From: a virus
DNA: 64,000 bases
Virus record (IMG/VR): IMGVR_UViG_3300030331_002523
Span: 1 to 64,000 of that record
Reading direction: 5' to 3' (one strand)
The position numbers were made by a program, and so were the translations under genes. Positions within the stretch are counted from its first letter, which is position 1. Each line of letters begins with the position of its first letter. The notes under the pieces are model-generated. The model worked only from the letters and a program-made list of their open reading frames with translations, did not search any database and was not told where the DNA came from. This document shows positions 3,301-54,888 of this stretch, piece by piece.

Positions 3301-6300
3301 CTTGTGCAGGTTTAGGTAATAATGCTGCAAATTGGTGGCAACATGGTGAAGAGATTAGATCTAGATGTTCAACTAATTATGTATCAATAAAAAATCAAAT
3401 AGATAATCAATATGGACAGTTAGATAGTATTATTCAATTGCCTATATTTGGTTGTACTACTTTATATCCAAAGGATGAGGAATCTGGACAGTTGCTTCCT
3501 TTTGATCAAGATAGTAGATTTAGTACACAAGTTCTATTTGGTGGTGACTCATATATAGCAAGATATACAGAAAAAACAAATATGCCATTCTTTTATCAGT
3601 TTTTAAAAGATGATGAAGAACGTGGTTACCAATGGAATTATTCAAGATATGCAAATGTACCATTTCCAAGATATTGGTACAATTCTGAAAAATACCGTAT
3701 GGGTGAATTTGTTAGACCTATTACAGATTTAGATTTTAACTGGACTGGTGCATTACCTGATGGTATGTATAATTTAGATACAGCTGAAAATGGTGGTTAT
3801 TGTCCTGATGGAGGTCCTGAATCTGTAAGTTTTAATGCTAATTTTGATGAGTTAGGAGAAGGTAACCCGCTTGGTGATCCTGTAGGAAGTGGAGGTACAA
3901 GTGCAACTACAATATTTACTCCTGTACCGCTACCTGCAAGTGGTGCTATAGCTCCATCAGCAAATAATACTCCGGAATATGTTGTAGGTGCAGAAGCACA
4001 AAGATACTTGGTATATGATATACCTTCTGGAAATCTTGAAACTGGTCAATTTACATTAATTAAAAATGCAAACTTAGTTTCTATACAGTCTACCGGTTCA
4101 ACTATAACTTTAAGATATCCTAATGCAACTGCAGTTGATCAGGCTGTGAGAGATGAACTTATTGATTTGGGTATAACAAATGCAGAGGTAACTATAGATC
4201 TAACTTTAAATTTAAATATTCCAATACCATACACTACACCATTTGGATCTGGGTCTGGTAATTGTAATATAGATACTCATGTTAATACAATTTTTGGAGG
4301 TGGTGGTTGTACAGATACGTATGATGAGTTAACAACAAATACAGGGGGAACAGCACAGATGGAGGGTACTATAAGTGGTGTTAGAATTATTTTTGACTGG
4401 CAGAGTATGACTGTAGTTGGTATAACTAATGCTGCAGGATATACTATGGCTGGTGGAGGAGCAGGGACAGCTTATGCATCTAATCAATATAGTTCAGCAT
4501 CAGGAAATAATAATCCACAAACACTTTCTCCATATACAGGAACGCCTGTTCCTACTGATGACAATTATAGTCTTATAAATTTTTCAAGTAATTCTTATGA
4601 TGATGCATCTTCTGGTTGTGTATATCAATTAGCAGCTAATACTATAAGAGTTGTCAATGGATTTGCAAGATGTAGAAATAGTGGTTCTGATGCTGATGAA
4701 ATAACAATGACATTTAGTGGTGTTGATAATAATACTTCATTAGGTAGTGGTGCAACAACGGGACAAACAAATTATGATAATAGTATATATAATCCAACTA
4801 ATTATCAGGGTGCAGGAGGTAGAGCTACAGGTGGTATGTTTGTATGGAAATATGGATATATCTATACTCATAACTCTGGTATTAATGATTGGTATGTTGA
4901 AACAGATTTAAATCTAGCTTATAGGGATTATGAAGATGTAAAGAGAAAAAGGCATTATGATAATGATGATTATACAGATCTTGTAGAATTGTTTCACTCA
5001 CAAATAATTGGATTTGATAATTATTATAATTATGATAAGTCAGTGAGTGTAAGAAGATTTTGGAGTGTTTCTTTTTCTAAAATACAAGAAAGATGGTATG
5101 ATCCTACTGTAGCAGAACAATGTTTTACTCAATATCCTAAACGACTAATATATTCTGTACCTGCTACAGGATTTATGGATGCAGCTAGAATGACAAAGAA
5201 AAATGATAAAGCTATTGATTTCTGGAGAGTTTTCTTAGCAGAAAATTTTAGAGACTTTAAATCTCCTATTAATGCAATAGTTCCTTTTAATCAAACTGGT
5301 GCATTAATGTTATTTCCAACATTATCACCTAGAGTTTTTCAAGGTGTAGATAAATTACAATTAACAAGAAAAAAAGTTGTTATTGGAGATGGAGGTTTAT
5401 TTAGTCAAGTATTACAAAACGCAGCTAACTCTAATGTATCACATGAGTATGGATCATGTGAAAGTTTTAGGAGTGTATTAAATACACCACAAGGTGTTTA
5501 CTTTGTATCACAAGCTCAAGGTAAAATATTTTTATATCAAGCAGGTAGAGGTCTACAAGCAATATCAGATATAGGTATGAAATGGTGGTTTAATAAATTT
5601 TTACCATCAAGATTATTAGCAGATTTTCCAGGTGTAGAAGATTGTCCAGAATTTATAGATAATCCTGTAATTGCTGCAGGTATTAATACAGTTTATGATC
5701 CTAATGATGACATAGTGTATTTCTGTAAGAGAGATTATAAAGCACATGATCATGTTTTACCTTGTATAGATTTTATACCATGTGAAGGGTTTGTATATAA
5801 TGCTACAACATGTGATGGTGCAGAACCACAAGTACAGTGTCCAGATGGATATTCATTTGTACCAGGATCAGTAACATGTCCTCCTGGAGCTCAATTAGTA
5901 TACCAAGACCCAGATACTCCTGTATGTATAATTCCAGGGGCTGGAGGAAATCCAGTACCAGCAACTGTTGTAGAAGATCAATGTTGTCAAACAACAGTTG
6001 AGCCAGCTTTATTTACAACAGAACCTGTAGAGATTGACATTGTTTTTGCTATTGACTCATCAAATAGTATAGATCAAAATGGTAATACTGCTGGTATGAT
6101 TAATATTATAAGTGATCTTGTAGCTGCATTAGGAGCTGCACAAAATACTAATGGAGAGATAAGAATTGGATTTGTTCATTTTGGATCAGGTAGAGCAGAT
6201 ATAAATGGTAATTTAGCTGGTATTACTGCACCTGTGGGTAATGATACTATGTTTAATGAATTTGACCAACAAGCACTTTCTGATGACTTTTCAGCAAGTG

Positions 6301-9300
6301 GCCCTTTATTTACATACATAAATAATATATATAATCATGCAGTGACTACACCAGATAATCCTAGTGGTACAGATGTAATTGGAGGTATATGGGCTGGCTT
6401 AAATATTTTATTTGGATCAAGTGCAAGACCTAATGCAGAAAAAAGATTAATTACTTTAGCAGATGGTCCACAGTTTACAAAAAATAATGGAGCTGTTTAT
6501 ACAAGTCCAGTTGATGTTCATGATGCAGCAGGTGTAGTATTTCCAGCTACCCCTAATGTAAATATTGGACCTAATAATGAAGGTGTAAATAATATATATG
6601 ATACGCCATTATCAACAGCGGGTGCATGGTTTAATACAAATGTAAAAAATAATCCTAACTATACACATTTAAAATCTTACTTTATAGGATTAGATACAAA
6701 CCAACCTAATCCATCTCCTCCTCCTACAAGTATTATAACTACTCCTAATGCAAATCAACAAACATATTTTTCACAATTTGCAAATGATAATGGTACACCT
6801 ACAGCAAATGATACTTATACATTTTTTGGCACTGTGCAAGATCCTGACTCAGTTCAAGAAATAGTAGATGCAGTTGTGGACAGTGTTATACCTGATCCTA
6901 ATTACTATTGTCCTGATCAATCATGTGATCTAGTTGCTATGCCAATAGGAGCACCAGTTTGTAGATGTGTAAATTGTGTTGATCCAACATTAATTGATGT
7001 TACATTTCCTATAGATTTACAAGATGAACAATATTTTAAAGATGTATCATGGACTGTAAGTTATGATCCTAAATCTAAAGCATGGATATCTTTTCATGAT
7101 TGGCACCCAGAACTTACAATGAATAGTATAAATCATTTTTTAACTACTAAGTCTAAAGAAGGTGAGGTTCCTATTTGTCCTCCTGGTGCTACATGGAATG
7201 GTGTTGAGTGTTGTATATCAGCATTTCAACAAGCTCCAGCAGTGCCTATTATTAATGAAATATTAGCAGAAGTAAATACAGTACCTACTGGTCAAGTTGA
7301 ATCACAAAATTTAGATATTATATTTGCAGTAGATGTATCTGCTTCTACTGCTAGTGGTGGTGTACAAAGTCTACAAAGAAATTTTGTACAGAATATAATT
7401 AACAGTTATGATTTTTCTAGTGGTACTGTAAGAGCTGGAGTTGCTACTTGGAGTGCCACAGGTGGTAATAATGTACTGTTATCAGGTTTAACTACTGATC
7501 AAGCAGCTTTAATAACAGCTACTAACTCATATGCTGTTGGTGGTGGTACTAATTATAAAAATGCAATAGAGGCAGCAAATAGTGTTGTTAATAGTGTTGA
7601 TGCAGATACATTAGCGGATACAGTAGTTTGTATTATGATTACAGACTCTGACGTAGACAGAAATTCTACATTAAATACTTCACCTCTTATTAATTATAGC
7701 AATTTATTTACAGACATAAAAGTTGTAATGGTTCATCAAGGTGATGGTGCAGGTTTTGTAGGTTTTGGGTGTGATGATACTTCATGGCAAAGTAGAATTG
7801 CTGGTCTAGTAGATAGATTTGTTTTACCCGATGTACCAATTCCTATGACTCTAGTGGGTAATTCTTATAACGGTTTTAATGATGGTAGTACCCAGGTTAT
7901 ATGTAATGCTCCTGATGATAATGCTAATCTGTATGAGGTAACTTCTTGTACTGATTGCGATGTATGTAATACATGTTTTCAAAATGTAGCAGCACAATTA
8001 GTAAATGCACAATTAACTTGTGGATGTCCTCCTAATACAATACCTGATCAAAATCCAGCTAATCCACCATGTGAAAATATAAACAACCCTCCATTGTGTG
8101 TAGTAGATTGTACTTGTCCTCCTGGATATGTATTAGTTGGAACATGTAATAATTCTGCTGCCCCTCCTATTTGTAGATCTGTAGATTGTGAATGTCCTCC
8201 AAGTGAATCTCTTGGGTTACCTAGTGGGGTAACGCCAACTGCTACGGGTGATTGTTCACAAGAGTTAGTAGAAACTATAAATACAACAACTATAGAAAGT
8301 ACTGTAGCAGATGGAACAAATGTTGGACAACAATTATTTTTTACAAATCCTGGATTTAATGGACCAACTGGTTTAGAAATAACACCTAGTCCATGGAATA
8401 GAGGATATCAATGTAGAGATAGTGCTTGTGTTGGTGGTCTAATTGATCCAGATCAAGGTAACATAAAAACTATGACTGCAGATACTTTACCAGTTATAAC
8501 AAATTTACTTGGAGAGCTTGTTGATGGTACTCCTATTGTAGTTAGTTCAAGTGTTGGTGGGAATTTGCCTCCATATGAGGGAACTTCATATTTAGGATTA
8601 GTAGAGTTTAAAAAGGCAATTTGTTGGAGAGGTCTTGGAAATCTTAGTACTGTTTGTTGTGGACAACCATTTGGAGCAGAGCTATTTACTAATGGACCAC
8701 CTACATATTATCAAGAGGGAAGTTGGCAAGAACTTTTAGATGCAAATGGTCTACCAACTGAAATGGAAATGAATTTAGAATATGTAGGAACAGTGCAATT
8801 AAGTCAAATAAGTGATCATACGCTACAAGGTTTTCAGCTTGTAGAAAATAGTGAGGAGTATACCCCAGGCTATGATGAATTTTCAGATCCACCTAATATA
8901 TGTTTAGATCTTCCAGTTGAAAGCACTGCTTCACAAAATCTGGATTTTGCTCCAAGTCTTGAAATTTGGGGTGGTACACATTCCCCTTTATCACAGGGTG
9001 AGAACTACAAAGGACATCAATTTGGTTATCCATTAGGTACAGATACTGTAGGTTATAGTAAACTGTTATGGAGATCAGGTCCTGTTACTTCAGTAGATGA
9101 ATGGACGGAATATCAATATAGTTTGAATGTAAATGATTCTGATGGCTCTATAGAAGCAGCGCATGGAAAGTTTAAATATATATTTATTAAAATACAAATT
9201 GTACGTGTAAGTGATGGTCAACCAGCTGGAATTCCTGCTACAAGACAATATGCTGCAAAGTATTTAGCTGTAGATGGTTTAAGTAATCCTAGACCACCTA

Positions 9301-10013
9301 GTATAGAACCTGAAACAATTACTACAGTTTCTACAGAAAGTGTTATAACAAATGCTACAATATGCACATATCAAACAGAAATTTGTACTCCACCAAATTA
9401 TACAACAGGTGGTATATGGAGACATAACGTAAGAACTGATCTTTTTGCTAACTTCTATGATATTCAGTATCCTTGGGAGGTAGATATAATAGAAACAACA
9501 GGTCAGACTGTAAATACATTAAGAAGTGTAGAGTATCATTTAGAATCATATTTTTATAGTGAAGATCAATTAAACAGATTTCATGATCTAGATTATAATT
9601 TTGATGAAGCTATTATTTACAACTCAGAACAAATATCAGGATTATTAAATCTTGTTCTTACACCTAAGAATAACACACCTTTAACAATGTTATATCCTAT
9701 TTTTAATGCAAATAGTATTGATATTTTATTTAGTAAAGAAGAGCAGAAATATAGATTTAACCAGTTTTTTGATGTAACAAATGACAGAGGTGAGTTTTCA
9801 GGTGCTATAACACAAATGTTTGAGACAGAACAGAATGGTTATATTATAAATTTAAATCAAGCTAATTTAAATTATAATAAACCACAGCATGAGAGAAAGA
9901 AGTTTAGACATTACTTTAATCATCTTATACTTAGAAAATCTGCTGATGCAGCAATGACAAGAAAAATGTTATTGAGATTAGAAAACTTTAAATTAAACGT
10001 ATCCTTTAGATAA
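351..10013 (+). CDS. Tail stabilization/muzzle protein with inserted VWA, Cys-rich and jelly-roll domains (3220 aa)
   Basis: N-terminal GM.KD...NEPAN..C..IIG beta-propeller-like region, YWDD..NP.R, WTVSYDPK..AWISFHDW and C-terminal KKFRHY motifs of crAss stabilization proteins; MIDAS motifs DSSNS (6054-6068) and DVSAS (7332-7346). Confidence 0.75.
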   Translation: MAKKRQQNSKRTPSTSSVNTSTPIKGMIKDVDSAYFSKENWWHARNLANNSIDGDTGVVGNEPANLACGEVPYTIIGTIHLYGDKWVLYATDDNNSEIGLFDDSKCEYTTLVNAPCLNFNRRNLIIGAAKENFDCTWQVYWDDNLNPSRTLNIDNVPYIQQIVSGPGDPCIIYEDTEQLDCEKLRLHPLMDMACLRLEKADEGGALLNGSYQAFIAYCDNAQQIGDYFTNSNITSVWSHENTNSSIVLHLDGLDTDFEFFKLVIREKVANATRNIEFGVYSTETKRIPIDFIDPELPTIDNVKLLLDNPVFEKSAGMFVVNDYLIRSQPTEYFDFNYQPLANQIKTFWTSVEYPEDYYKNGGNNPTFLRDEQYAFFIRFIYNTGEFSKSYHIPGRAPRQLSNGGTEDGPAAANTIDGSEKNYNVYNTFTSLGLGDPFLANLIGTTTPDGGLVTNGGEMGFWQSTELYPQTQPERYNASAHPWSNPGTTEFDLCGLPIRHHKIPDESEAAISPLTGNNSTALFNPSNSTINVLGVAFDNIAPPVDNDGNIIENIVGYQIMVGSRDGKKSIIAKGIIKNMMRARKDRNDEDYRLLVPNYPYNDLRMDPYLLDRGHGNRSGEPWYAQLAGWDTSVEDNWQAGNTNISDGPQSMAVSSINVGVNNPGIFFLQNPDYGPGKFDENTYTFHSPDLNFTKTYLNPTEVKVYKNIYGNVTGRFKTVEGHTQHKLLKNKVVLLAAIYGVGYAIMKMRGERNYALKGTRSHSVGEFGTYAVGSGTHGSPFPGVGTGYGALNAGAQNLTQAGALTTEYFAAGVVDGVSILGGASEASKVHLGTQQQAQLGAALLSGGHQGPEFNMEFRDSEFNAVPGVGTFITGILTFINFVAIGGDKLVQLILDLVSFQDYALKYISHGFYQFENPVDKNGTFRAGIDRARYIKQALQSFDGDNVVHNLLRPSTVVLRHTPGIRLNPVPDNFLDNTKFTLGAGPCAGLGNNAANWWQHGEEIRSRCSTNYVSIKNQIDNQYGQLDSIIQLPIFGCTTLYPKDEESGQLLPFDQDSRFSTQVLFGGDSYIARYTEKTNMPFFYQFLKDDEERGYQWNYSRYANVPFPRYWYNSEKYRMGEFVRPITDLDFNWTGALPDGMYNLDTAENGGYCPDGGPESVSFNANFDELGEGNPLGDPVGSGGTSATTIFTPVPLPASGAIAPSANNTPEYVVGAEAQRYLVYDIPSGNLETGQFTLIKNANLVSIQSTGSTITLRYPNATAVDQAVRDELIDLGITNAEVTIDLTLNLNIPIPYTTPFGSGSGNCNIDTHVNTIFGGGGCTDTYDELTTNTGGTAQMEGTISGVRIIFDWQSMTVVGITNAAGYTMAGGGAGTAYASNQYSSASGNNNPQTLSPYTGTPVPTDDNYSLINFSSNSYDDASSGCVYQLAANTIRVVNGFARCRNSGSDADEITMTFSGVDNNTSLGSGATTGQTNYDNSIYNPTNYQGAGGRATGGMFVWKYGYIYTHNSGINDWYVETDLNLAYRDYEDVKRKRHYDNDDYTDLVELFHSQIIGFDNYYNYDKSVSVRRFWSVSFSKIQERWYDPTVAEQCFTQYPKRLIYSVPATGFMDAARMTKKNDKAIDFWRVFLAENFRDFKSPINAIVPFNQTGALMLFPTLSPRVFQGVDKLQLTRKKVVIGDGGLFSQVLQNAANSNVSHEYGSCESFRSVLNTPQGVYFVSQAQGKIFLYQAGRGLQAISDIGMKWWFNKFLPSRLLADFPGVEDCPEFIDNPVIAAGINTVYDPNDDIVYFCKRDYKAHDHVLPCIDFIPCEGFVYNATTCDGAEPQVQCPDGYSFVPGSVTCPPGAQLVYQDPDTPVCIIPGAGGNPVPATVVEDQCCQTTVEPALFTTEPVEIDIVFAIDSSNSIDQNGNTAGMINIISDLVAALGAAQNTNGEIRIGFVHFGSGRADINGNLAGITAPVGNDTMFNEFDQQALSDDFSASGPLFTYINNIYNHAVTTPDNPSGTDVIGGIWAGLNILFGSSARPNAEKRLITLADGPQFTKNNGAVYTSPVDVHDAAGVVFPATPNVNIGPNNEGVNNIYDTPLSTAGAWFNTNVKNNPNYTHLKSYFIGLDTNQPNPSPPPTSIITTPNANQQTYFSQFANDNGTPTANDTYTFFGTVQDPDSVQEIVDAVVDSVIPDPNYYCPDQSCDLVAMPIGAPVCRCVNCVDPTLIDVTFPIDLQDEQYFKDVSWTVSYDPKSKAWISFHDWHPELTMNSINHFLTTKSKEGEVPICPPGATWNGVECCISAFQQAPAVPIINEILAEVNTVPTGQVESQNLDIIFAVDVSASTASGGVQSLQRNFVQNIINSYDFSSGTVRAGVATWSATGGNNVLLSGLTTDQAALITATNSYAVGGGTNYKNAIEAANSVVNSVDADTLADTVVCIMITDSDVDRNSTLNTSPLINYSNLFTDIKVVMVHQGDGAGFVGFGCDDTSWQSRIAGLVDRFVLPDVPIPMTLVGNSYNGFNDGSTQVICNAPDDNANLYEVTSCTDCDVCNTCFQNVAAQLVNAQLTCGCPPNTIPDQNPANPPCENINNPPLCVVDCTCPPGYVLVGTCNNSAAPPICRSVDCECPPSESLGLPSGVTPTATGDCSQELVETINTTTIESTVADGTNVGQQLFFTNPGFNGPTGLEITPSPWNRGYQCRDSACVGGLIDPDQGNIKTMTADTLPVITNLLGELVDGTPIVVSSSVGGNLPPYEGTSYLGLVEFKKAICWRGLGNLSTVCCGQPFGAELFTNGPPTYYQEGSWQELLDANGLPTEMEMNLEYVGTVQLSQISDHTLQGFQLVENSEEYTPGYDEFSDPPNICLDLPVESTASQNLDFAPSLEIWGGTHSPLSQGENYKGHQFGYPLGTDTVGYSKLLWRSGPVTSVDEWTEYQYSLNVNDSDGSIEAAHGKFKYIFIKIQIVRVSDGQPAGIPATRQYAAKYLAVDGLSNPRPPSIEPETITTVSTESVITNATICTYQTEICTPPNYTTGGIWRHNVRTDLFANFYDIQYPWEVDIIETTGQTVNTLRSVEYHLESYFYSEDQLNRFHDLDYNFDEAIIYNSEQISGLLNLVLTPKNNTPLTMLYPIFNANSIDILFSKEEQKYRFNQFFDVTNDRGEFSGAITQMFETEQNGYIINLNQANLNYNKPQHERKKFRHYFNHLILRKSADAAMTRKMLLRLENFKLNVSFR

Positions 10014-13000
10014 TGAATAAACCATATAAAATAGGAAAATCTAATATAGAAGGTCAAGGTCTTATTGCAGCAATGGATCTTAAACCTGGTGATCTTATTG
10101 GTCTAAGTCATTCTAATGGTGAGATTGCATCAGAGATAGGTCAATATTATAATCACTCTGACACACCAAATGCTGTAAGTGCATTAGTTGGTGGTGATAG
10201 ATATGTAATTGTATCTGAGAATATATCTATGGGAGGTGAGATTACAGTTGATTATAGAAAACAACCTGAACTTGGGCAACCAGAGGATTTTATAAAAAAA
10301 ATGCAACCTGGTGGTCCAGTTATAATTAATTTTAGTAAAAAACTTTTAAAGAAGGTTGCAAAAGATAATAGATATTTACCACTAAAAAAATTAGATAATG
10401 TATTAACTAAAAACTTTAATACAGGTGAACAGCTTGTATTAGCAAATGTTTTAAAAAACAATCCTAATCTTATTCAAAATGATTTGGTTGATTTAAAACG
10501 GTTAGGAGATCTTGCAAACACGGATTTGGAAAAATCTTTACCTAGATTTACTAAAGTAGATGTAAATACTGATGATGTAGGTAAGGTTACTTCTAATTGG
10601 AAAAGTTTAGAAGCAGATGGTGCAGATTTTGGAGCACATAGATTACCTGAGCTTATGCCAAGTCAATTTAACTACGGATTTGGAAATGTCTTTTCCTATA
10701 GAATGCCAGGTACAAATAGATTTACTCCATTAAATTATTCTTTTGCTATGCCTCAACTTTTTACTAACCCTAGATTACCAGCTCATCATGATGGTCTACA
10801 TTTAATAGATGATAAAGCAATAGGATGGTTTAGAGGTTTAAGTGATGCACAAAATCCAAATAGATACTTAGCACAAGAGTTTCAAATGGATCTTGGAAAA
10901 GATAGGCAAAATACATATTTAGCAGAGAGATTAGATATGGGTTATAAAAGACCTAATACTCTATCACTAGGTTTACCAGGTAGACTAGAGAATCAAAGAA
11001 TAAATTATGCTCATATGATTAAAAGAGTTGATCAACAGCATCAAAGAAAACTTGATGAGTTTTATGATAAAAAAAGACAAAAAGAAATTTTAAAAACTGA
11101 GTATAATAATAAATTTGGTTTAGATGAATATAAAGGAGAATTAAATGACATTGAAAATAGGCTAGTAAATTTAAACTATGAGATATCTGAATTAGGTATG
11201 AAACTTGGTGATTCTAGATTTACAGAGTACATTACTCCAAGAATTAAATCTATTAAAAATCCTTTACAGGCAAGCAGAATAATGCAAAGTCCATATATGA
11301 CTTTACATAATGAAAGTCTTAATTTTTTAAGAAATAAAGGATTTAATGAGATAGTTATACCTGATGCAAAAACAATTACAAATATACAAAATTGGCCATC
11401 ACCTAGACAAGGAACATTAGATCTATATACTAGACTTAGAAATAATCCTATGTTAAAACAAGGAGATCCTTTTAAGTTTGATGAGTATGAAGGAACAATT
11501 TTTAATATTTTAGATAAACCATACAAAAGATTTAAACAGGATGGTGGTGAAGAAAATAATGAAGAATTATTTTCTATAAATAAATATAATGAAGTTATTA
11601 CACCTGAAGAATATACAAATGAACAGTTATTTGATTTCTTAAAAAATAACTATAATACAATTGATACATCTCAACAACAACAAGATCTTTTAGCAAAGTT
11701 TAGAACTCCTACTTTTTTAAATAGATATAAAAAGAATTACTTTAATATTACAGGTGAACAACTTGATGATGATCAAGCAATAAAGAATATATCAGAACAG
11801 TATGATTTTACTTCTAAAGGAGCACCTTTTCATGTATCATTTCCATTTGTTAGATATAATCCAGAGGGATACAAACAGTCATATTCACCATATATACAAC
11901 CATATCATGATAACAAAAGAGTTATTTTTAGTCCACAATTAAAAGGTTTATATGCAGATCCTCCTAACTTTACTTATAGAACTGTAGAAACACCAAACAT
12001 TCCAGAATTAGCAAATCAATATTCATTTGTACCAATGTTATTTAATAAAAGAAGTATAGATTCAATGGTAAGTGATGGTAGAGATGTAAGACCTTTTAGT
12101 GATGCAGATGAAACAATAGTTCATGAATATGCTCATTCATATAATACTGAAGATTCACCATTGTTTAAATCTATAGCTAATTTACTTAATAATCAAGATG
12201 ACTATGCTTATAAAGGGCCAGGTAAACGTTATAAAGGTTGGTTAACTAATTTATTTGGTGAAGAGTATTTTGATAAAGAGAAAAATCCATATGGTGAGTG
12301 GGCTATGCAACCAATGGAGATAAGTTCTATGAGAGCTGAGACTGAAACTAAATTAAAAGATGCAAATATTTGGGATCATACAAAGGGGGAATTTGGTATG
12401 GATAATTTAAATGCCATGTTAAAAAATAAATTTAATATGGAAGAAGGACCTGGTTATCATTTAAATCTTTTAGGTTATGGTGATTTACAACAAATAAGTA
12501 CAAATAAGCAGAAAATAAACAGAGAATATAAAAATGCATTACGTGATCTAGAGTCAAGTGGTGCTGATTCTGACAGAAAAATAGATTTTATAAAGTATAA
12601 TATATTAGAAGATTATGATGGAAATCCTAGAACTGATACTAGAGTAAATCCAGATCTTAAAAGATATTCATATGATAGTATAGATATAGATACATTTAAC
12701 AAGATATTATCAAATAGTCAAAGTGACATAAAAGAAAGAAATAGATATGCAACTTATGAGGACTTATTAAACGATTATAATTCTGGAAGAAAAAAGAAAA
12801 GAGAAAGAGCAGAATCTGTTCTTAATACTTTATATGATGGTATTAAAACTGAGATAGGTAATATATACAATCCAAAAATTGAAGAACAAGAAAATATATT
12901 AGAAAAAAAGAAAGAAGAAGTTTTACCCAAAATGGATAAATATTTTAATGAGATTGCAATGGAGGATCAGGAGAGTGATACTAGGCTAGCTAGATATGGT

Positions 13001-13927
13001 ACAGAATTACCTTTAGCACAAGACGGTACAGAAAAAAAACCTATGTTTGATTTTATGGGTTACTTTAAAGGAGAGCAAGGTTTAATACCAGATCTATATG
13101 GAAAGACTACTAAAGATACCTATATGGAAAATAAAGATGCTATTCAGAAAGGTGCAGATGTAGTTGCAGCAAGTGGTCTTCCTTTTGTATCTCAAGCTGC
13201 TAATGTAGTTAGCACCGGTATTGATTATGGTGATGCAGCTATGGCATATGCACAAGGTGATTATGATACAGCAAAAAAAGAATTTGCTCAAGGAACTACA
13301 GGTTTTGCATTAGGTATTTTACCAGGTGGTAAGGCAATTAAAGCCGCAACAAAAGGAGTAGGAGAATCAATAGTAAAAGGTGGTATTAACACAGGAGTAA
13401 AGTATGGTGCAAAATCAGGTGTTAAATCTGGAGTACAAGAAGCTGTTGATACAATAGTTGATACTAATACTCAGAAGAAGAATATAGGTGATGTAGTAGA
13501 AAATACTGCTTCAAATAGTATGGCAATGATGGGAGGTGAAGTATATAGATATGAAAGATCTCCTTTTAAAGATGGTAAGTTTGTTATATCAAATCCGGAT
13601 GATCTTATTATACAAATAACAAAGACAGAAATGTTTACACCTGAATTTAAAATGGGCGGTGTTGTTACAGCTGATGGTTTTACATTAGAAAAGAAATTTG
13701 ATAATAAAAGAAAATTACCTTTTATACAATATTCAAAAGAAACAGATGTAGAAGGTAGAGTGTATTATGATAATACAACAAATGAAATAGTAGATGTTAC
13801 AACTTTAGAATTAAAAAAGAAAAGAAAACATAATAGAATTAAAACTATTATTGATAAATATGAATCTGGAAAAGAGTTATCTAGACTAGAAACTGATGCT
13901 TTAAACTCTTTAGGGTTATTAGATTAA
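10013..13927 (+). CDS. Multidomain virion cargo polyprotein: N-terminal SET domain, E-x-Q-x-D domain, HExxH zincin, pre-toxin-like hydrophobic segment
   Basis: SET motifs GxG (EGQGL), NHS (10151-10159), EITVDY (10238-10255); HEYAH at 12122-12136; TAATG coupling to the upstream gene. Confidence 0.7.
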   Translation: MNKPYKIGKSNIEGQGLIAAMDLKPGDLIGLSHSNGEIASEIGQYYNHSDTPNAVSALVGGDRYVIVSENISMGGEITVDYRKQPELGQPEDFIKKMQPGGPVIINFSKKLLKKVAKDNRYLPLKKLDNVLTKNFNTGEQLVLANVLKNNPNLIQNDLVDLKRLGDLANTDLEKSLPRFTKVDVNTDDVGKVTSNWKSLEADGADFGAHRLPELMPSQFNYGFGNVFSYRMPGTNRFTPLNYSFAMPQLFTNPRLPAHHDGLHLIDDKAIGWFRGLSDAQNPNRYLAQEFQMDLGKDRQNTYLAERLDMGYKRPNTLSLGLPGRLENQRINYAHMIKRVDQQHQRKLDEFYDKKRQKEILKTEYNNKFGLDEYKGELNDIENRLVNLNYEISELGMKLGDSRFTEYITPRIKSIKNPLQASRIMQSPYMTLHNESLNFLRNKGFNEIVIPDAKTITNIQNWPSPRQGTLDLYTRLRNNPMLKQGDPFKFDEYEGTIFNILDKPYKRFKQDGGEENNEELFSINKYNEVITPEEYTNEQLFDFLKNNYNTIDTSQQQQDLLAKFRTPTFLNRYKKNYFNITGEQLDDDQAIKNISEQYDFTSKGAPFHVSFPFVRYNPEGYKQSYSPYIQPYHDNKRVIFSPQLKGLYADPPNFTYRTVETPNIPELANQYSFVPMLFNKRSIDSMVSDGRDVRPFSDADETIVHEYAHSYNTEDSPLFKSIANLLNNQDDYAYKGPGKRYKGWLTNLFGEEYFDKEKNPYGEWAMQPMEISSMRAETETKLKDANIWDHTKGEFGMDNLNAMLKNKFNMEEGPGYHLNLLGYGDLQQISTNKQKINREYKNALRDLESSGADSDRKIDFIKYNILEDYDGNPRTDTRVNPDLKRYSYDSIDIDTFNKILSNSQSDIKERNRYATYEDLLNDYNSGRKKKRERAESVLNTLYDGIKTEIGNIYNPKIEEQENILEKKKEEVLPKMDKYFNEIAMEDQESDTRLARYGTELPLAQDGTEKKPMFDFMGYFKGEQGLIPDLYGKTTKDTYMENKDAIQKGADVVAASGLPFVSQAANVVSTGIDYGDAAMAYAQGDYDTAKKEFAQGTTGFALGILPGGKAIKAATKGVGESIVKGGINTGVKYGAKSGVKSGVQEAVDTIVDTNTQKKNIGDVVENTASNSMAMMGGEVYRYERSPFKDGKFVISNPDDLIIQITKTEMFTPEFKMGGVVTADGFTLEKKFDNKRKLPFIQYSKETDVEGRVYYDNTTNEIVDVTTLELKKKRKHNRIKTIIDKYESGKELSRLETDALNSLGLLD

Positions 13928-13947
13928 AATTAGTTTATATTGCGTTT

Positions 13948-13967
13948 TTTTAGTATATTATTATTGT
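13948..13967 (+). promoter_or_regulatory. Candidate late-promoter motif, copy 1
   Basis: TTTTAGTATATTATTATTGT, intergenic before 13991. Confidence 0.55.
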
Positions 13968-13990
13968 AGTACAAATTACAGTCAAAAAAT

Positions 13991-16528
13991 ATGGCAAGAA
14001 AGAAAAAAAATAAAAAACAACAAACTTTTAATGTTTATCCATTTTTGGCTGAATATGGTATAACTACTGCAAATTTACCAAAAGCACAGAAGGGTGTAGA
14101 ATTTACTGCACAAGCTCCTATTTATAATGCAATAGGTGAATGTGTTATGAATTGTACAAAAGTAACTATGCAGCCACAAAGTGATTTTGAAGTTGGACTA
14201 GGATTCTCAGGTGGTAAAACTTTGGATGATAACTATACAGGAAGTGGTAAATTAACATCTGGTTTATCTTTTAATCCTAGAGGTGGTTTAGGTGGTGTAG
14301 ATGGCTACTTTGGAGGTAACTTGGGTGCTAGAGCAACTACAAATGAAAGTACTGCTAGTATAGATCCTTTTGCTAATCTTGTAGGACGTTTTGGATATTC
14401 AGATAGATTACCTCCTCTTAACAGACGTAATAGAGTTGGTTTACCTATAGCTCTTGGTGCTTTTGGTCAAAAAAGTCTTATGGGTAATGAAGGTGATTTA
14501 GCTGGTTTATATGGTCAACTAGGTAACTTTAATGTAACAGGTGGTTATAACTTTAACACAAAAAGTCCTCAGTTTACTGTTGGTTTTGGTATTCCTATTA
14601 GAGAAGAAGGTGGAGATAGTGGAAAAGATGAAAAGAGTTTTATAGAATTGCAAAATGAGATGATGGATGCACAACGTGCTTCAGTTCAAAATGCACTTGG
14701 TTCTCCTGTTCCTGCATTTGCAAATACTAATGCTTTTAATTTAATTAATTTGATTTCAGGAGTTGGTAAGTTTGCAGATGATGCAAAAGCAGGGTTTCCT
14801 AATATGATTAATCCAGCAACTGGTAAACCATATGAAAAAAGTAATTTTGAAAAAATAACTGTTACTAACCCAACAGGTGAAAATAGATTATTAAATACAA
14901 AAGTTCTTAATGAATATATAAAAGGAAATAAAGAAGACAGAAGTAAAATCAGTCAAGATGAATTGTGGAGAAAACCAAATGAGGTTAGAGCGGAATATTA
15001 TAATGCTGCTATGGCTGATAGACAAGAATTATATCCTGATATGTTTTCTAATTCTTCTATGGATTTAGATGGTAATATTTCTTATGATGATATAACTGTA
15101 CCAAATCCAAATTATGATGAAGAACTATTTAAAACAACAGGAGATCCTCAATATGGTCCTACAATAGTTGAACCATTTGATTTAGAAAAACATGGAACTG
15201 AGTTTGATAAGGCAGAACAAAATTTAGCTGATTATAATGTTGATTATTTTATTTCTGATGATGAAGGTGTATTTGATCCAAATAATATCACATTCCAAAC
15301 ATATAAAGAAGGTCAACCAGTTACTGAAGCATATGATCCAACAAAAAATTATAGAGATCATACTATAACTACTAACGTTCAAGAAGATATAAATAAAGAT
15401 TATGTAGATGAACAAAGATTAGGAGGTACAATAAGATTTGGAAATGGTGGTGACAATAAAAACCGTAAGGTAGTAAAAAATTATGCAAAAGATTGGGGTC
15501 TTGATAATAGTGCTGTTAGAGATATATTATCTAATTTTCCTAGTTTTAATGCAGAAACTGATACTATTATTTCAAGTGTAAATCCTAATATAGGAGAACT
15601 AGGTTATCAAAATATGGATGATTATATTGCTCAACTTTTACAAAATGCAAATAATGCAGGATTTAATTTTGATATAACAGGTGGACGTGGACAGTTACAA
15701 AATGTTCCAACTCTCTATGGTGGTGCAGGTTTTGCACAATTTTCTAAACCTATGTTACAAGGAGGAGGAGGAACACCAGTAGATCAAAATTTTCCATTGA
15801 TAGATTCTGATGGAGATGGTATTCCAGATAGTATTGATGCAGACTCAGGTGTAAACGCACCTATGGGTCCATTTCCTGAATTTGATCAAGACGGTGATAA
15901 TATACCTGATCTTGTTGAAGCACCAGGTCCAGATAATCCACAAACACAAGAACCATTTATAGGACCTATGAATCAAGAATCACAAGAACCACAACCAGAA
16001 GGAGATCCTGATGATTTAGGAATAGAAATTGATAAAGGTAATTTAAATACAAGATTTGATAAGTTTCTTAAAACAAGTAAGTTTGCTAATGTTTCAGATA
16101 GTTTTGTAAGAAATATAGGAGAACCTTTTATTGATTTTGTAGGAGGTTTAAAAAGTGGTTTTGATACCAAAATGAACAGGTTTAGGGCTGAGGAAGATAA
16201 TGATGAAGCTATGGACTTTATGGCTGTAGTAGAATCAACAAGAGATGCTAAAGGTGATAGAGAATTTAGAACAGGTAGTACAAAACCTTTTACACAAACA
16301 CAAGAAGAAATATATGGACAGTTAGCACAATTGGGAGGACAACCTACAAATCCACAAGCAGGTCCTGACTTTTCTATGTTAATGCAATATATACCTACTC
16401 CTACTACAATGAGATTTGATGAGATATATTTACAAAAACAAATGGAAGATGGGGGACAAATAGTAGATGTTGATATAGATACTTTAAAAGAATTAATGGC
16501 TGCGGGAGCAGATATTGAAATATTATAA
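13991..16528 (+). CDS. Putative virion cargo protein with a beta-barrel-like segment and thrombospondin type-3-like Ca-binding motifs
   Basis: 845-aa ORF in the cargo block; alternating hydrophobic/Gly strands 14180-14600; DSDGDGIPD and DQDGDNIPD at 15803-15919; multiple xxGG motifs. Confidence 0.55.
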   Translation: MARKKKNKKQQTFNVYPFLAEYGITTANLPKAQKGVEFTAQAPIYNAIGECVMNCTKVTMQPQSDFEVGLGFSGGKTLDDNYTGSGKLTSGLSFNPRGGLGGVDGYFGGNLGARATTNESTASIDPFANLVGRFGYSDRLPPLNRRNRVGLPIALGAFGQKSLMGNEGDLAGLYGQLGNFNVTGGYNFNTKSPQFTVGFGIPIREEGGDSGKDEKSFIELQNEMMDAQRASVQNALGSPVPAFANTNAFNLINLISGVGKFADDAKAGFPNMINPATGKPYEKSNFEKITVTNPTGENRLLNTKVLNEYIKGNKEDRSKISQDELWRKPNEVRAEYYNAAMADRQELYPDMFSNSSMDLDGNISYDDITVPNPNYDEELFKTTGDPQYGPTIVEPFDLEKHGTEFDKAEQNLADYNVDYFISDDEGVFDPNNITFQTYKEGQPVTEAYDPTKNYRDHTITTNVQEDINKDYVDEQRLGGTIRFGNGGDNKNRKVVKNYAKDWGLDNSAVRDILSNFPSFNAETDTIISSVNPNIGELGYQNMDDYIAQLLQNANNAGFNFDITGGRGQLQNVPTLYGGAGFAQFSKPMLQGGGGTPVDQNFPLIDSDGDGIPDSIDADSGVNAPMGPFPEFDQDGDNIPDLVEAPGPDNPQTQEPFIGPMNQESQEPQPEGDPDDLGIEIDKGNLNTRFDKFLKTSKFANVSDSFVRNIGEPFIDFVGGLKSGFDTKMNRFRAEEDNDEAMDFMAVVESTRDAKGDREFRTGSTKPFTQTQEEIYGQLAQLGGQPTNPQAGPDFSMLMQYIPTPTTMRFDEIYLQKQMEDGGQIVDVDIDTLKELMAAGADIEIL

Positions 16529-16530
16529 TT

Positions 16531-19500
16531 ATGGCAAAAATTAAAATAAATAAGTTACCAAAGGGATACATATTAAAAGGTGGACAAATCATCAAAGAGG
16601 CTAGTTATGGAGGTCAATCTATGGGTTCTAACTATGATAATAAACAATCATATGCAACAACATTACAACCTGTGCCAAGAGATGAAGCTAATATTGAAGC
16701 AGAAAAGGGTGAGACAGTATTAACTGATATTGGTGGTGATGGTACTTATCAAATGTATAATATAGGAGGAAAACGTCATTCTGAAGGTGGTACTCCATTA
16801 AATTTACCTGAACAATCTTTTATTTACTCTGATACAAGAAAAATGCTATTAACAAAAGATGAGATGGCAGAGCTTGGTATAAAGGGTAAGAAAAGGATTA
16901 CGCCAGCTAAAGCATCTAAAAAGTTTGCAATAAAAGAATACATGGATATTCTTAATGATGAAGGATCAGATGAGCTTGCCATATCTACTGCTGAATCTAT
17001 GGTAAAAAAGAATAAGATAAAATTATCACAGCTAGCATTTATACAAGAAAGAAAAAAGAACTTTGAAGAAGGTTTACCTATAGCAGCTTACCCTTACCTA
17101 TTGGAGAATGGTATTGATCCAAGAATGGTAGAGCAACAAATAGAAAAATCAAAAGCACAAGCATCACAACAACAAGCACCACAAGCTCCTTCAGCAGACC
17201 AAGGACAACCATCTCCAGAACAGATGCAACAAATGGCTATGGCAATGCAACAAGGTCAAGGTATGCCTCAACAACCTATGGCAAATTTAGGTGGTAATGC
17301 ACCTGATAATACTGGAAGTATTGATCAAACAATGGGAGAAGCAAGTTTAGTACGTACACCCTATTCAGGTGTAGATTCAAACTTTAGTGGACCAATGGGT
17401 GAAATGGGATTAGAATTAAAAGTTCCTAAAATGCCACCTAGAATGCAAGACGGTGGTGACGGTGGTGCAGAAACTTATAAGCAAAGAATACTAAGATCAG
17501 TAGAAGAATCAGCAGTTGATTGTAAAACAACAATCTGTAGTTTTGAACAATGGGCAAAACAATACAGAATGAAAGATAATCAAGAAACAAGATTTATGTA
17601 TGAGAGCTATAAAACAAGAGCTATAGATCAAATGAGAGCTCCTGAGATTAGTTCTGAAATAATGCCAGGTCATGAAAACATGATGCCAACTCCTCCTATA
17701 AATACACAACAAGCAGGTTTTGGTAATATGTTAAAACAGTTTATACCTGGGGAAGAATATGATTATATAATAGATGATCCTATGCAAGGTATGAAGGATG
17801 CTTTTGGTTATGTAAAAGGTTTAATGGGCATGCAAATGGGTGGTCAACCAATGACTCAATCAGAAGATCAGTCACAAATGCAAACGTTAATGATGGGTAT
17901 ACGAGAATTAGCTATGAGAAGAGAATCATTAATGACTGCTTTTAAAACTAATCCTGATGCATTTCAAGGTGAAGAAGCACAGACTAATTTAGCTTTACAG
18001 TTAAAATTAATTGATACTGAGATAGGAGCTTTACAATTAAAATTAAAAGAGATTGAAGATAAAGAACTATTAAGACAAACTACTTTATCATTATCTGATT
18101 TTATACCAGGTATGGAGCAACAACAACAGCCACAAGGTTTTCCTACTGAAATGCCTATGGCTGAAGATGGTACAGAAATTACATATACATTGAATCCTCA
18201 ACAAATAAATGTGAATAGTCCTTATTCAGAAGGGAATTTTCCAATTATGTCATATGACTATAGAGTGGATGCAGATGAACCAAATGCTGCTCAAAAAAAT
18301 ACAGGTATGGATAAGAGCATGGATTGGCAATCTACACTTGCTCGGGACCAATTTGATCCAGTAAGAGAGCAGTGGATTAAATCTTATAGAGATGGTGTTG
18401 AGGCTTTTAGAGGTAAAAAGAATAGTGATGGTAATGACATATCTTATCCTGAGAAATATAGTGATGATGAGTTACTTTCTATTTTCAATGAACTTAATCA
18501 ACAACTTTTAATTTTTGATCAAGCAGGTGAAGAACTTGGTAATAGTGGTGAAAATTATATAGGACTTGCTAAGAAATATGGTCTGCGTGAAATGACTAAG
18601 GAAGAAATAAAAGCTTGGCAAGGTATGTATGCTTCTCTTAATGAGACTAAAAAGTTACCAGAATATAAAGATTTATTTAGTAACATTAGTACAGAACTTA
18701 GAGGATTAGATAGAGAAGATACACATCAGTCTAGTACAGGAGAACCACAATCAGATGCTGATGGTTTCTTAGGATCTACATCTCAAGGACAGTTTGTTAG
18801 TATAAAAGATCCTGTTGACACAACTAAAATAGAGAATCCATGTCCTCAAGAAGTTATAGAAAAGAAAATTATAGAATGTCAAGAAGCTGGTAAAATATTT
18901 AGTAGAGCTACATGTAATTGTATAGAAAGGCCACCAGATCCAGTACCTGGAAAAATACCTCCATACTTAACATTTCCTGGTGATGATGCAGAGGTATTAT
19001 TTGCTGCACAAACTGTAAACAATAGAGACTTATATCTACCAGATAGAGAGCAGTACATGCCATATATGCGAGATCCAGGTTATGTAGGTCCTAGACAAGA
19101 AATAGCTGCTATTACAGCTGCAGTAAATGCACAAGCTGAAATGGGAGATGATAGTTTATTTACACAAGGTAAAGCTCAAGATGCTATTGATAAAGCTATA
19201 AATAAAGCTGCACAAACAAATACTAAAATATTTGATAATACTCAAGCTTATAATGTAGCAGAATTAAATAAAGCTAATATGAAAAATGCTGAGTTTAGTA
19301 ATATATATACAGATGAAGTTAATACTGCACTACAGGAATATGATAATACTAGACTCCAAGATCTTGAGAATTTAAAAGATGCTGAGATAACAAGAAGAGA
19401 AAATGCAGATAAACTATTAGAGCTTAATATGCAGAATCCTAATTATTTCTACAATCCACAAGCTAGCACATATCAATTTTATAATGAGGATGGTCTACAA

Positions 19501-19809
19501 GCATTGCAAAATCCTGGTGGGCAAATGAAGTCTTTTGAACAAATTTATAATGAGGTGTCAACTGCTAATCCTTCTATGTCTGCAGAAGAAAAAAGATTAT
19601 TAGCTCAACAAATATATGAGACGCAAGCTGGAGGTGGTATAACTACAAATTCAGGATCTCCTTTAGATATTAGAAATAATAATCAACCAGCTGATACTGA
19701 AACATCTAGATTTGGAGGTCAAAGATATAGGCGTGGTGGTAGTACTAGACAACGTAGATTAAATGAAAGTAAAATAAAAATGAGAAATTTCCTTTTAGGT
19801 ATTTCATAA
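16531..19809 (+). CDS. Conserved crAss-like virion cargo protein
   Basis: N-terminal EAEKGE...GGKRHSEGG..L...SFIYSD domain typical of crAss-like cargo proteins; Q/M/P-rich linker; position just before the giant ejection proteins. Confidence 0.6.
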   Translation: MAKIKINKLPKGYILKGGQIIKEASYGGQSMGSNYDNKQSYATTLQPVPRDEANIEAEKGETVLTDIGGDGTYQMYNIGGKRHSEGGTPLNLPEQSFIYSDTRKMLLTKDEMAELGIKGKKRITPAKASKKFAIKEYMDILNDEGSDELAISTAESMVKKNKIKLSQLAFIQERKKNFEEGLPIAAYPYLLENGIDPRMVEQQIEKSKAQASQQQAPQAPSADQGQPSPEQMQQMAMAMQQGQGMPQQPMANLGGNAPDNTGSIDQTMGEASLVRTPYSGVDSNFSGPMGEMGLELKVPKMPPRMQDGGDGGAETYKQRILRSVEESAVDCKTTICSFEQWAKQYRMKDNQETRFMYESYKTRAIDQMRAPEISSEIMPGHENMMPTPPINTQQAGFGNMLKQFIPGEEYDYIIDDPMQGMKDAFGYVKGLMGMQMGGQPMTQSEDQSQMQTLMMGIRELAMRRESLMTAFKTNPDAFQGEEAQTNLALQLKLIDTEIGALQLKLKEIEDKELLRQTTLSLSDFIPGMEQQQQPQGFPTEMPMAEDGTEITYTLNPQQINVNSPYSEGNFPIMSYDYRVDADEPNAAQKNTGMDKSMDWQSTLARDQFDPVREQWIKSYRDGVEAFRGKKNSDGNDISYPEKYSDDELLSIFNELNQQLLIFDQAGEELGNSGENYIGLAKKYGLREMTKEEIKAWQGMYASLNETKKLPEYKDLFSNISTELRGLDREDTHQSSTGEPQSDADGFLGSTSQGQFVSIKDPVDTTKIENPCPQEVIEKKIIECQEAGKIFSRATCNCIERPPDPVPGKIPPYLTFPGDDAEVLFAAQTVNNRDLYLPDREQYMPYMRDPGYVGPRQEIAAITAAVNAQAEMGDDSLFTQGKAQDAIDKAINKAAQTNTKIFDNTQAYNVAELNKANMKNAEFSNIYTDEVNTALQEYDNTRLQDLENLKDAEITRRENADKLLELNMQNPNYFYNPQASTYQFYNEDGLQALQNPGGQMKSFEQIYNEVSTANPSMSAEEKRLLAQQIYETQAGGGITTNSGSPLDIRNNNQPADTETSRFGGQRYRRGGSTRQRRLNESKIKMRNFLLGIS

Positions 19810-52668: not shown

Positions 52669-52893
52669 ATGAATAAAAGATATTATAAAAAAGGTGGTCA
52701 AAAAAAGACTGCATGTATAGGCAAAGTAAAAGGTGTTGACGTATGCGCTTTAACAATGAGACAACAAAAAACACTTGAAAAACATTCTGTGCATCATTCA
52801 AAAAAGCACATAGCAATGATGGTTAATGCTATGAAAAATGGAGCATCATTTGGAGCTTCTCATAAAATGGCACAGAAAAAAGTTGGAAAATAA
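52669..52893 (+). CDS. Small basic protein
   Basis: HS.HHSKKH..MM...MK.G.SF..SHK.A motif; YYKKGG near the N-terminus. Confidence 0.65.
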   Translation: MNKRYYKKGGQKKTACIGKVKGVDVCALTMRQQKTLEKHSVHHSKKHIAMMVNAMKNGASFGASHKMAQKKVGK

Positions 52894-54448: not shown

Positions 54449-54724
54449 ATGCCAGCAAATATGAATAAACCTTACAGAAATGGTGGAGGTTCTAAGAAAA
54501 AAATGAAAAGAACAAAAAGAAAGTATGGTACGGGTGGAACAGCAAAACCTATGGAATATGGTAATGGTGGAGCTTATGGACGTAGAATGGCACGTATGGG
54601 CACAGGTATGTCTATGCCTAATGATGTTATGAATATGGTTAGAGCTGCAAAAGGTAAGCAGATGAAAGGTGCCATGAAGTTATTTAATGCTCTAGCAAAA
54701 AAGCTAGGTAAAAAAGTAAGGTAA
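54449..54724 (+). CDS. Small basic Met/Gly-rich protein with repeated YxxGG motifs
   Basis: YRNGG, YGTGG, YGNGG, ARMG, AAKG within 91 aa. Confidence 0.7.
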   Translation: MPANMNKPYRNGGGSKKKMKRTKRKYGTGGTAKPMEYGNGGAYGRRMARMGTGMSMPNDVMNMVRAAKGKQMKGAMKLFNALAKKLGKKVR

Positions 54725-54888
54725 TGGGATTTAAAGGATCAAGAAGAAGCACAAGATCAGCTGCAAAAGGAAAACTCCTTCCAAAGGCGGGCCATGGTGG
54801 ACAAAAAAGTCTACTAACAAAGCTGTCTATGCCATCTAGACCTGCAAAAAAAGCAGGTGGATGTGGTTGCGGAGGACAAACACGTTAA
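54724..54888 (+). CDS. 54-aa basic protein (not in ORF track)
   Basis: Manually translated MGFKGSRRSTRSAAKGKLLPKAGHGGQKSLLTKLSMPSRPAKKAGGCGCGGQTR; TAATG coupling. Confidence 0.65.
   Translation: MGFKGSRRSTRSAAKGKLLPKAGHGGQKSLLTKLSMPSRPAKKAGGCGCGGQTR

Follow-up and report, generated by a model that had tools for sequence, protein, structure and literature searches.

Locus and form of the tag

The stretch of DNA analyzed here (the window; 64,000 nucleotides, positions 1 to 64,000 of virus record IMGVR_UViG_3300030331_002523) is the opening part of a virus record that is 115,405 bp long and judged complete; the virus is an uncultured, marine, crAss-like phage. Three consecutive plus-strand open reading frames (ORFs) in the window, ORF1, ORF2, and ORF3, carry repeated copies of a short peptide, here called the tag, which lies at the borders of exchangeable protein modules and is conserved in relatives. 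The tag core consists of an aromatic residue or Met, followed by Lys, Arg, or Gln, any residue, and two Gly residues. In the full form the core is followed by x-Leu-Pro-Lys-Ala-Gln-x-Gly, with variants reading Leu-Pro-(Lys/Arg)-(Ala/Phe/Met)-(Gln/Asp)-x-Gly. Examples of the full form in the wider family are MARYGTELPKAQKG and FVYGGDLPKAQDG, and in the window ARYGTELPLAQDG of ORF1 and the leader of ORF2 (...AEYG...LPKAQKG) are full forms. Tags occupy disordered linkers that join the modules; others directly follow short, basic leaders at N termini or precede C termini by approximately 20 to 25 residues. The three ORFs and their tags are as follows.

10013-13927, plus strand: ORF1 (P0001), 1,304 amino acids (aa), with a SET module, module 2, an HExxH zincin-like module, and a Gly/Ala-rich C-terminal module
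10301-10315, plus strand: tag MQPGG, aa 97 to 101, at the end of the SET module; eight alignment blocks of relatives end at aa 93 to 118
11531-11548, plus strand: tag FKQDGG, aa 507 to 512, where module 2 meets the zincin-like module; ends or starts of alignment blocks fall at aa 507 to 523
11561-12955, plus strand: folded core of the zincin-like module, aa 517 to 981, with HEYAH at 12122-12136
12989-13027, plus strand: full-form tag ARYGTELPLAQDG, aa 993 to 1005, fitting a family consensus such as MARYGTELPKAQKG; alignment blocks end at aa 996 to 1017 and start at aa 1003 to 1005
13523-13537 and 13646-13660, plus strand: tags AMMGG and FKMGG, respectively, in the C-terminal part of ORF1
13991-16528, plus strand: ORF2 (P0002), 845 aa, a modular cargo-type protein with 53 relatives (exhaustive search)
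13991-14095, plus strand: basic leader and tag of ORF2, MARKKKNKK...AEYG...LPKAQKG, aa 1 to 35
14096-14614, plus strand: module a of ORF2, aa 36 to 203, ending ...GIPIREEGG (tag at 14600-14614)
15413-15451, plus strand: tags QRLGG and FGNGG, aa 475 to 487; alignment blocks end at aa 468 to 493
16325-16339 and 16442-16456, plus strand: tags AQLGG and MEDGG, respectively, the latter 23 aa from the C terminus
16531-19809, plus strand: ORF3 (P0003), 1,092 aa, with a conserved N-terminal domain (aa 1 to approximately 205)
16600-16614, plus strand: leader tag ASYGG, aa 24 to 28, in which G27 and G28 are invariant
17281-18171, plus strand: linker tags ANLGG (17281), MQDGG (17443), MQMGG (17830), and MAEDG (18157)
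19705-19740, plus strand: tail tags SRFGG and YRRGG, approximately 22 aa from the C terminus, before a conserved terminal helix

The motif had been noticed in an earlier, sequence-only reading of this DNA, and all 24 of the 24 motif positions checked translated exactly (among them MQPGG at 10301, FKQDGG at 11531, ARYGTELPLAQDG at 12989-13027, AQKG at 14084, and REEGG at 14600). That reading counted about 20 copies of one motif; approximately 14 fit the pattern that it gave, whereas REEGG, QRLGG, SRFGG, AEYG, and MAEDG match only the broader consensus obtained from relatives. No published description of the tag was found: the literature on Crassvirales cargo and proteolytic processing held no account of it, and a search for "LPKAQ" together with "phage" returned one unrelated paper only. 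A likeness of LPKAQxG to the sortase signal LPXTG was considered and dropped, as the spacing differs.

Enrichment of the tag in this genome

In ORF1 to ORF3 the strict pattern [AMFY]xxGG occurred 14 times against 4.0 expected (z = 5.1), and none of 1,000 composition-preserving shuffles reached 14, in agreement with the enrichment over background that had been anticipated. A narrower pattern, [FYM][KRQE]xGG, occurred six times against 0.6 expected from shuffles, and the plain Gly-Gly dipeptide 38 times against 22.6. When 100 proteins of the genome were subjected to the shuffle test, the top of the proteome included ORF3, a 91-aa basic protein, a 1,674-aa lysozyme-like protein, ORF2, and ORF1. 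The LPKAQxG half has four copies in the whole proteome, one each in ORF1, ORF2, a 54-aa basic protein, and the 1,674-aa protein (at residue 9).

Conservation of the tag in relatives

ORF3 belongs to a family of at least 1,240 proteins. Among its best 120 homologues, [FYM][KRQE]xGG was found 238 times against 26 expected (approximately ninefold), with at least one core copy in 100 of the 120, and the LP(K/R)(A/F)Q-x-G half was found 46 times against 0.6 expected (nearly eightyfold). As judged from these sequence comparisons, conservation in relatives is the decisive support for the tag. In an alignment (A1) of 17 ORF3 members sharing 33 to 84% identity, G27/G28, G254, G309, G437, and G547 were invariant and G255 and G438 nearly so; most ORF3 relatives have M(K/A)xGG at residues 23 to 27. 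The linkers around the ORF3 tags are rich in Pro, Gln, and Met, scrambled, indel-rich, and predicted to be disordered, with flanks of 10 to 40% identity, and the Gly-Gly and the hydrophobic position were retained across relatives of 30 to 40% identity. Over 1,545 Gly-Gly sites, the position 3 residues before the first Gly was the most informative column (Phi-x-x-G-G).

EGGELPKAQFG occurs three times in a 2,658-aa polyprotein of a related viral contig, which has KGGELEKAQKG as a fourth, variant copy and two shorter tags besides. Full-form copies within one gene differ at synonymous sites and have no long identical DNA in common. Relative to a close relative (approximately 81 to 86% identical), the tag Gly codons change synonymously only, the hydrophobic position stays within its class (Tyr to Met), and the x positions vary freely. 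These codon comparisons indicate that selection acts on the tag peptide and not on the DNA.

Some of the figures could be read as a chance or compositional artifact of Gly-rich low-complexity sequence. The pattern given by the sequence-only reading was loose and picked after looking, Gly-Gly itself is enriched 1.2- to 2.1-fold in ORF1 to ORF3, and the per-protein signal in this genome alone is modest (p = 0.007 to 0.05). Against such an artifact stand the shuffles, which never reached the observed count, the excess in relatives for both halves of the tag, the invariant columns, and the position of tags at module borders. This explanation has a negligible probability and is already refuted; the tag is real.

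Tags at module borders and module exchange

The proposal that copies sit at domain junctions was supported by two structure predictions (the ORF1 zincin-like module and ORF3) and by the ends of homology blocks, which agree. The AlphaFold2 model of the zincin-like module is confident (mean predicted local distance difference test [pLDDT] score, 76.4; predicted template modeling score, 0.72) and is ordered over model residues 13 to 477, with FKQDGG in the disordered N-terminal 12 model residues and ARYGTELPLAQDG in the disordered C-terminal end. In the ORF3 model, which is poor (pLDDT 53.7), every conserved tag fell in coil segments with a pLDDT below 50. A fold search with this poor model gave nothing that scored below an E value of 0.2, and profile searches of a solved-structure sequence library with ORF3 or its alignment gave coiled-coil noise only.

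The SET module of ORF1 was identified by a Pfam hit of 24 bits against a cut-off of 22.4. In the zincin-like module, 16 sequences share H-E-Y-x-H-S-Y-N without exception, with the Ala of HEYAH almost unchanged; Glu residues further downstream are likewise invariant. The module had no Pfam match, and Foldseek found nothing at E ≤ 0.001; VIA-align of the 516-residue model, whose length is too great for a clear-cut domain search, gave Z scores of 6.2 or below, on a helical hairpin only and with no zincin among the neighbors. This very long hairpin (ORF1 aa 822 to 979) makes up the C-terminal third of the module. The C-terminal module of ORF1 (13028-13522) has a Gly/Ala-rich stretch, GTTGFALGILPGGKAIKAATKG, that is like a predicted membrane segment of crAss001 gp45 in composition only. 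Relatives of ORF1 include proteins with LysM and lytic transglycosylase modules.

Alignment end-points clustered at tags in both proteins for which domain swaps were checked, as the sequence-only reading had foreseen. In ORF1, 39 of the 55 internal BLAST end-points from 25 relatives lay within 15 residues of a tag, against 6.7 expected and a maximum of 18 in 2,000 randomizations. The corresponding figures for ORF2 were 77 of 125 internal end-points from 53 relatives, with 29 expected and a randomization maximum of 45. Relatives P0130 to P0132 and P0144 match only ORF1 aa 1155/1171/1174 to 1304, with blocks that begin at or just before AMMGG. Swapped joints in ORF1 relatives bear the tag too. 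P0126 corresponds to ORF1 minus the whole HExxH module, joined tag to tag: ...KRFKQDGG runs directly onto module 4, and P0126 reads KQDGG-EEKK where ORF1 reads AQDG-TEKK.

Module a of ORF2, rich in Gly and aromatic residues, is among the most widely shuffled modules, being present in at least 20 different proteins at differing positions. In most of them GG-x-LPKAQxG, or a sequence close to it, precedes the module, and in nearly all PIR(K/R/Q)xGG marks its C-terminal end; in P0138 it directly follows the HExxH module. In IMGVR_UViG_3300005074_000003, a relative that is 81 to 86% identical in ORF2 and ORF3 (ORF starting at 10001; approximately 81 to 84% identical over the aligned parts of ORF2), module a is missing exactly from LPKAQKG to REEGG, leaving a hybrid tag, LPLSKAEEG, where the window has LPKAQKG ... 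REEGG. The same relative has an insert of approximately 110 aa right after FGNGG of ORF2. As these are whole-module indels between phages 81 to 86% identical, payload turnover appears to be recent. A separate feature of ORF2 is an acidic Asp/Gly/Pro repeat, DSDGDGIPDSIDAD, at aa 599 to 652 (15785-15946), which looks calcium binding and matches 6 to 11 repeated stretches in the large proteins P0182, P0192, P0193, and P0200.

The three ORFs had been described as polyproteins of swappable effector domains that are loaded and/or cut apart at the motif. Swap, loss, and gain of modules exactly at the motif bear out the first part of that description and not the cutting, which is taken up below. The tag-to-tag indels between near-identical phages, together with the hybrid tags that they leave (LPLSKAEEG, and KQDGG-EEKK in P0126), could also mean that the tag has no reader and is a flexible linker carried along with each module cassette, where it marks recombination seams; Gly-rich linkers between domains are common. 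We consider this improbable. The absence of long identical DNA among tag copies and their differences at synonymous sites weaken the view of the tag as a mere DNA recombination seam, although recombination clearly occurs at or beside it all the same. A simple linker also fits poorly with the retention of Gly-Gly and the hydrophobic position at 30 to 40% identity amid a scrambled linker, with the LPKAQxG half (46 against 0.6), which is not needed for flexibility, and with the presence of tags in N-terminal leaders, and in tiny proteins without any modules to be joined.

Gene neighborhood and other tagged proteins

The capsid protein of the phage matches the Pfam crassvirus major capsid family (E = 1.9e-30), and the portal and terminase were identified via PHROGs. 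A Bacteroidota host is suggested by the type IX secretion sorting domain in one of the phage-encoded proteins. On the plus strand, a gene for a 3,220-aa muzzle-like protein is followed by ORF1, ORF2, ORF3, a 1,173-aa ORF, a 5,174-aa ORF, and a 1,872-aa ORF. The same gene order (muzzle gene, cargo slot, polymerase-slot ORFs) is found in crAss001 and csAssE-Sib; in crAss001 the muzzle gene is gp44, the genes for cargo proteins C1 and C2 come next, and the polymerase-associated giants come after them (PMC10172136). The further features of the window that bear on the tag are as follows.

351-10013, plus strand: muzzle-like tail protein, 3,220 aa, matching PHROG 37948 "virion structural protein" (E = 2.5e-42), with two VWA hits
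23354-38878: 5,174-aa ORF in the polymerase slot, labeled a putative virion RNA polymerase in the sequence-only reading
38885-44503: 1,872-aa ORF in the polymerase slot, labeled a putative polymerase in the same reading
52669-52893, plus strand: 74-aa basic protein starting MNKRYYKKGG, with the tag at residues 6 to 10
54449-54888, plus strand: two tiny basic proteins, one of 91 aa with YRNGG, YGTGG, and YGNGG and one of 54 aa with LPKAGHGG

ORF1 to ORF3 are probably internal ("cargo" or ejected) proteins that are carried in the particle and injected; we infer this because of their gene position. No homology could be detected between them and the proteins that mass spectrometry found in virions of crAss001 or phi14:2. 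ORF1 had no match in the phage database, and the region had no DNA match among 50,697 phage records.

Recurrence of the motif on small basic proteins of the genome, also claimed earlier, was confirmed, with YKKGG, YRNGG, YGTGG, YGNGG, and LPKAGHGG all present. The 91-aa ORF has three tags against 0.44 expected (p = 0.0075). ORF3 and the proteins of 74, 88, and 91 aa have leaders ending in Gly-Gly, which are strongly basic; internal copies of this tag occur as well. Beyond the window, the 1,674-aa protein (82582-87606 of the full record), encoded upstream of the terminase, has the leader MARKLKKKLPKAQPG and approximately seven copies of Y-(K/Q)-x-G-G at aa 717 to 1153. Its Pfam match to phage lysozyme is weak (E = 0.006, below the cut-off), and it is probably another tagged, ejected cell-wall enzyme.

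Proteome motif counts found no tag in the muzzle-like protein (where the count was not above expectation), the capsid protein, the portal, the 5,174-aa ORF, or the 1,872-aa ORF. The 5,174-aa ORF contains 11 Gly-Gly dipeptides against 15.6 expected, none of them tag-like. By these counts the tag marks a subset of the probable internal proteins, not all large virion proteins. The sequence-only reading had suggested a candidate cleavage/packaging code; the two polymerase-slot ORFs are without the tag, and therefore it is not a general packaging signal. Pfam gave nothing significant in either half of the 5,174-aa ORF, which is clearly a fusion of several parts, yet without a junction tag.

The tag as a possible uncut handle or cleavage site

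Our tentative first choice, at somewhat under an even chance, is that the tag would be read uncut, as a docking or threading handle and a flexible joint. It would hold the chains to a repeated part of the particle, such as the portal, the tail-barrel rings, or a scaffold, and the chains would remain bead-like strings that could move through the tail before the DNA in a partly unfolded state. Modules could be inserted, lost, or exchanged without breaking the system because every module would bring its own caps. The conserved part of the tag, at approximately 13 residues, is longer than most protease sites, and no Gly-Gly-type or prohead protease family was detectable in the genome. In crAss001, cargo protein C1 is anchored at the muzzle, rings, and portal and was read by the authors as one chain through the portal; its portal-bound piece (residues 425 to 552) was modeled from Ala-Phe-Gly-Gly as a continuous chain (PMC10172136).

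Several observations weigh against an uncut handle. A tag at every joint, in the leader, and in the tail is the layout of a processed polyprotein, and one handle per protein would do for docking. The tags in basic proteins of 54 to 91 aa, including that at residues 6 to 10 of the 74-aa protein, cannot be interdomain hinges, and the 5,174- and 1,872-aa polymerase-slot ORFs, which are expected to be packaged, have no tag. The Phe-Gly-Gly of crAss001 resembles the tag without detectable homology, and the mass spectrometry of crAss001, made on one gel band, provides no protein sizes (PMC10172136). The reader of the tag, too, is a candidate only: a 437-aa ORF between the portal and capsid genes (97532-98845 of the full record) is a candidate scaffold and so a candidate tag reader. 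This ORF has no Pfam or PHROG family, and its language-model look-alikes are scaffolding proteins at weak scores of 0.81 to 0.82, in the noise range. A Prp protease among the look-alikes (0.81, also in the noise range) was rejected as a lead, no Prp family being found in the genome.

A reading that we rank a close second, and regard as credible though by no means probable, is that the tag would be a cleavage site, with the polyproteins cut at or next to Gly-Gly during head maturation or after injection. The enzyme might be the zincin-like module embedded in the chain, a phage protease that escaped detection, or a protease of the host, and cutting would free modules for different compartments and trim leaders and tails. 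The layout is in keeping with this: there is one tag per joint, with leaders of approximately 10 to 35 residues and tails of approximately 22 to 25 residues, and several tags occur in the tiny basic proteins, where a hinge would be meaningless. LysM and lytic transglycosylase modules (cell wall) stand beside SET (presumed intracellular) and would act in different compartments. The invariant HExxH module lies within tagged proteins and scarcely ever occurs by itself; a search for free-standing copies gave two short hits only, one that runs off at its C terminus and is clearly cut off and one that looks incomplete and is probably cut off. For polyvalent proteins, processing by zincin peptidases has been proposed, and one protein of the phage P1 dar operon undergoes cleavage ahead of packaging (PMC5512222). 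In phiKZ-like phages, ejection proteins are cut by the prohead protease (PMC10052503, PMC7411985).

Searches for such a protease were made against six-frame translations of the complete 115-kb genome at E ≤ 1, a procedure that a very divergent protease inside a giant ORF could escape. There was no match to C5 adenain (PF00770), C48 Ulp1-like (PF02902), or C39 (PF03412) peptidases or to the prohead proteases (S77, S78, and S49/ClpP-like; PF03420, PF04586, and PF01343), and Pfam and PHROG scans of the head-gene neighbors were empty. With Prp, seven families are thus absent from the matches. The cutting proposed in the sequence-only reading was not borne out by these searches, since no adenain, Ulp1, C39, HK97-type, T4-type, S49, or Prp family was found and the register differs: in the adenovirus site the hydrophobic residue is closer to Gly-Gly by one position. 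In the AlphaFold2 model the two tags at the ends of the zincin-like module are disordered and not docked in the module, which is optional: the close relatives P0126 to P0128 do not have it. To our knowledge, HExxH zincins are not known as Gly-Gly cutters. The crAss001 model begins at Ala-Phe-Gly-Gly, so the bond is intact there, and the N4 virion polymerase is packaged unprocessed despite the presence of a zincin (PMC5512222).

A broader view, which is speculative and which we hold to be rather unlikely, would make the tag the recognition signal of an undescribed, Crassvirales-wide processing-and-release system in which capped modules are loaded, injected, and cut free together with small basic core peptides. 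The protease would be one that is still unrecognized, perhaps the embedded HExxH module. If true, bacteriophages would have their own equivalent of the core maturation of adenoviruses, with the cargo genes as plug-and-play polyproteins; cutting of the tag, if it occurs at all, would amount to a new virion protease system.

Crassviruses rank with the most abundant phages of the gut and are common in the sea. Because the tag marks exactly the proteins and module borders involved, it offers an experimental handle, and it gives a simple criterion by which injected effectors could be picked out of the genomes of uncultured phages. It also explains the shuffling of payload modules, with tag-to-tag indels seen even between phages more than 80% identical. 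Recent structural papers name as an open question how crassviruses select several megadaltons of protein cargo, store it, and eject it (PMC10172136, PMC13434306).

Comparison with known systems

Four kinds of described system resemble the tagged proteins in part. Adenovirus protease cuts at (M/I/L)XGG-X and (M/I/L)XGX-G, and the pS273R protease of African swine fever virus cuts at Gly-Gly-X. As in the tag, a hydrophobic residue lies a few positions before Gly-Gly, and, as is probable for the tag, the sites are on core or internal proteins that include small basic ones. In the tag, however, the hydrophobic residue is three and not two positions before the first Gly, there is the extra LPKAQxG half, no C5 or C48 family was found in the genome, and these viruses belong to a different realm.

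The internal proteins of T4 have a capsid-targeting leader that is cut at Leu/Ile-x-Glu. Together with the ejection proteins of phiKZ and SPN3US (PMC10052503, PMC7411985), they are like the tagged proteins in that a short shared motif occurs on a subset with N-terminal leaders that is head-internal and injected with the DNA, as the tagged proteins probably are. They differ in that the motif ends in Glu and is served by a recognizable S77/S78-type prohead protease, none of which was found here, and in that they lack the build of exchangeable modules in series with a tag at every junction.

Polyvalent proteins (Iyer et al. 2017, PMC5512222) are likewise very large and multidomain and are carried with the DNA, as ORF1 to ORF3 probably are, with mosaic, fast-changing architectures and a comparable mix of effector-type domains (here SET and the HExxH zincin-like module, with LysM and lytic transglycosylase in relatives). 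ORF1 has at least two unrelated effector-type domains and is mosaic among its relatives, as in that class. A zincin peptidase is predicted to process polyvalent proteins (PMC5512222). Unlike the proteins studied here, they have no described junction peptide (the words "linker" and "crAss" are absent from PMC5512222), and the zincin-like module of ORF1 differs in having no Pfam family or solved-structure match.

The cargo proteins C1 (gp45) and C2 (gp46) of crAss001 (PMC10172136) belong to the same virus order and occupy the same slot, after the muzzle gene and before the polymerase-associated genes. They share a basic MAKKK-type N terminus followed by aromatic-x-x-Gly-Gly, and long disordered stretches. 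In contrast to the proteins of the window, they have no LPKAQ half, and the paper describes no junction tag or module exchange (PMC10172136); the aromatic-Gly-Gly count of gp45 is about that expected from composition, by a rough estimate made without shuffles. By eye, the N-terminal domain of ORF3 had looked homologous to the domain of gp45 that binds the portal, but sequence comparison gave no support (hhalign probability, 0.15%; best BLASTP E value, 0.26). A hidden Markov model of the N-terminal domain built from 120 sequences scored gp45 no better than 500 shuffles and found nothing in phi14:2.

The sole match to ORF3 in the phage database was in csAssE-Sib (OR575929.1), a gut crAss-like phage, over aa 19 to 135 at 37% identity. 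The match sits in a 946-aa "structural protein" (11368-14208) downstream of the annotated muzzle protein, and this protein has the tag-like sequences WEREGG, FFRDGG, and KMAEGG.

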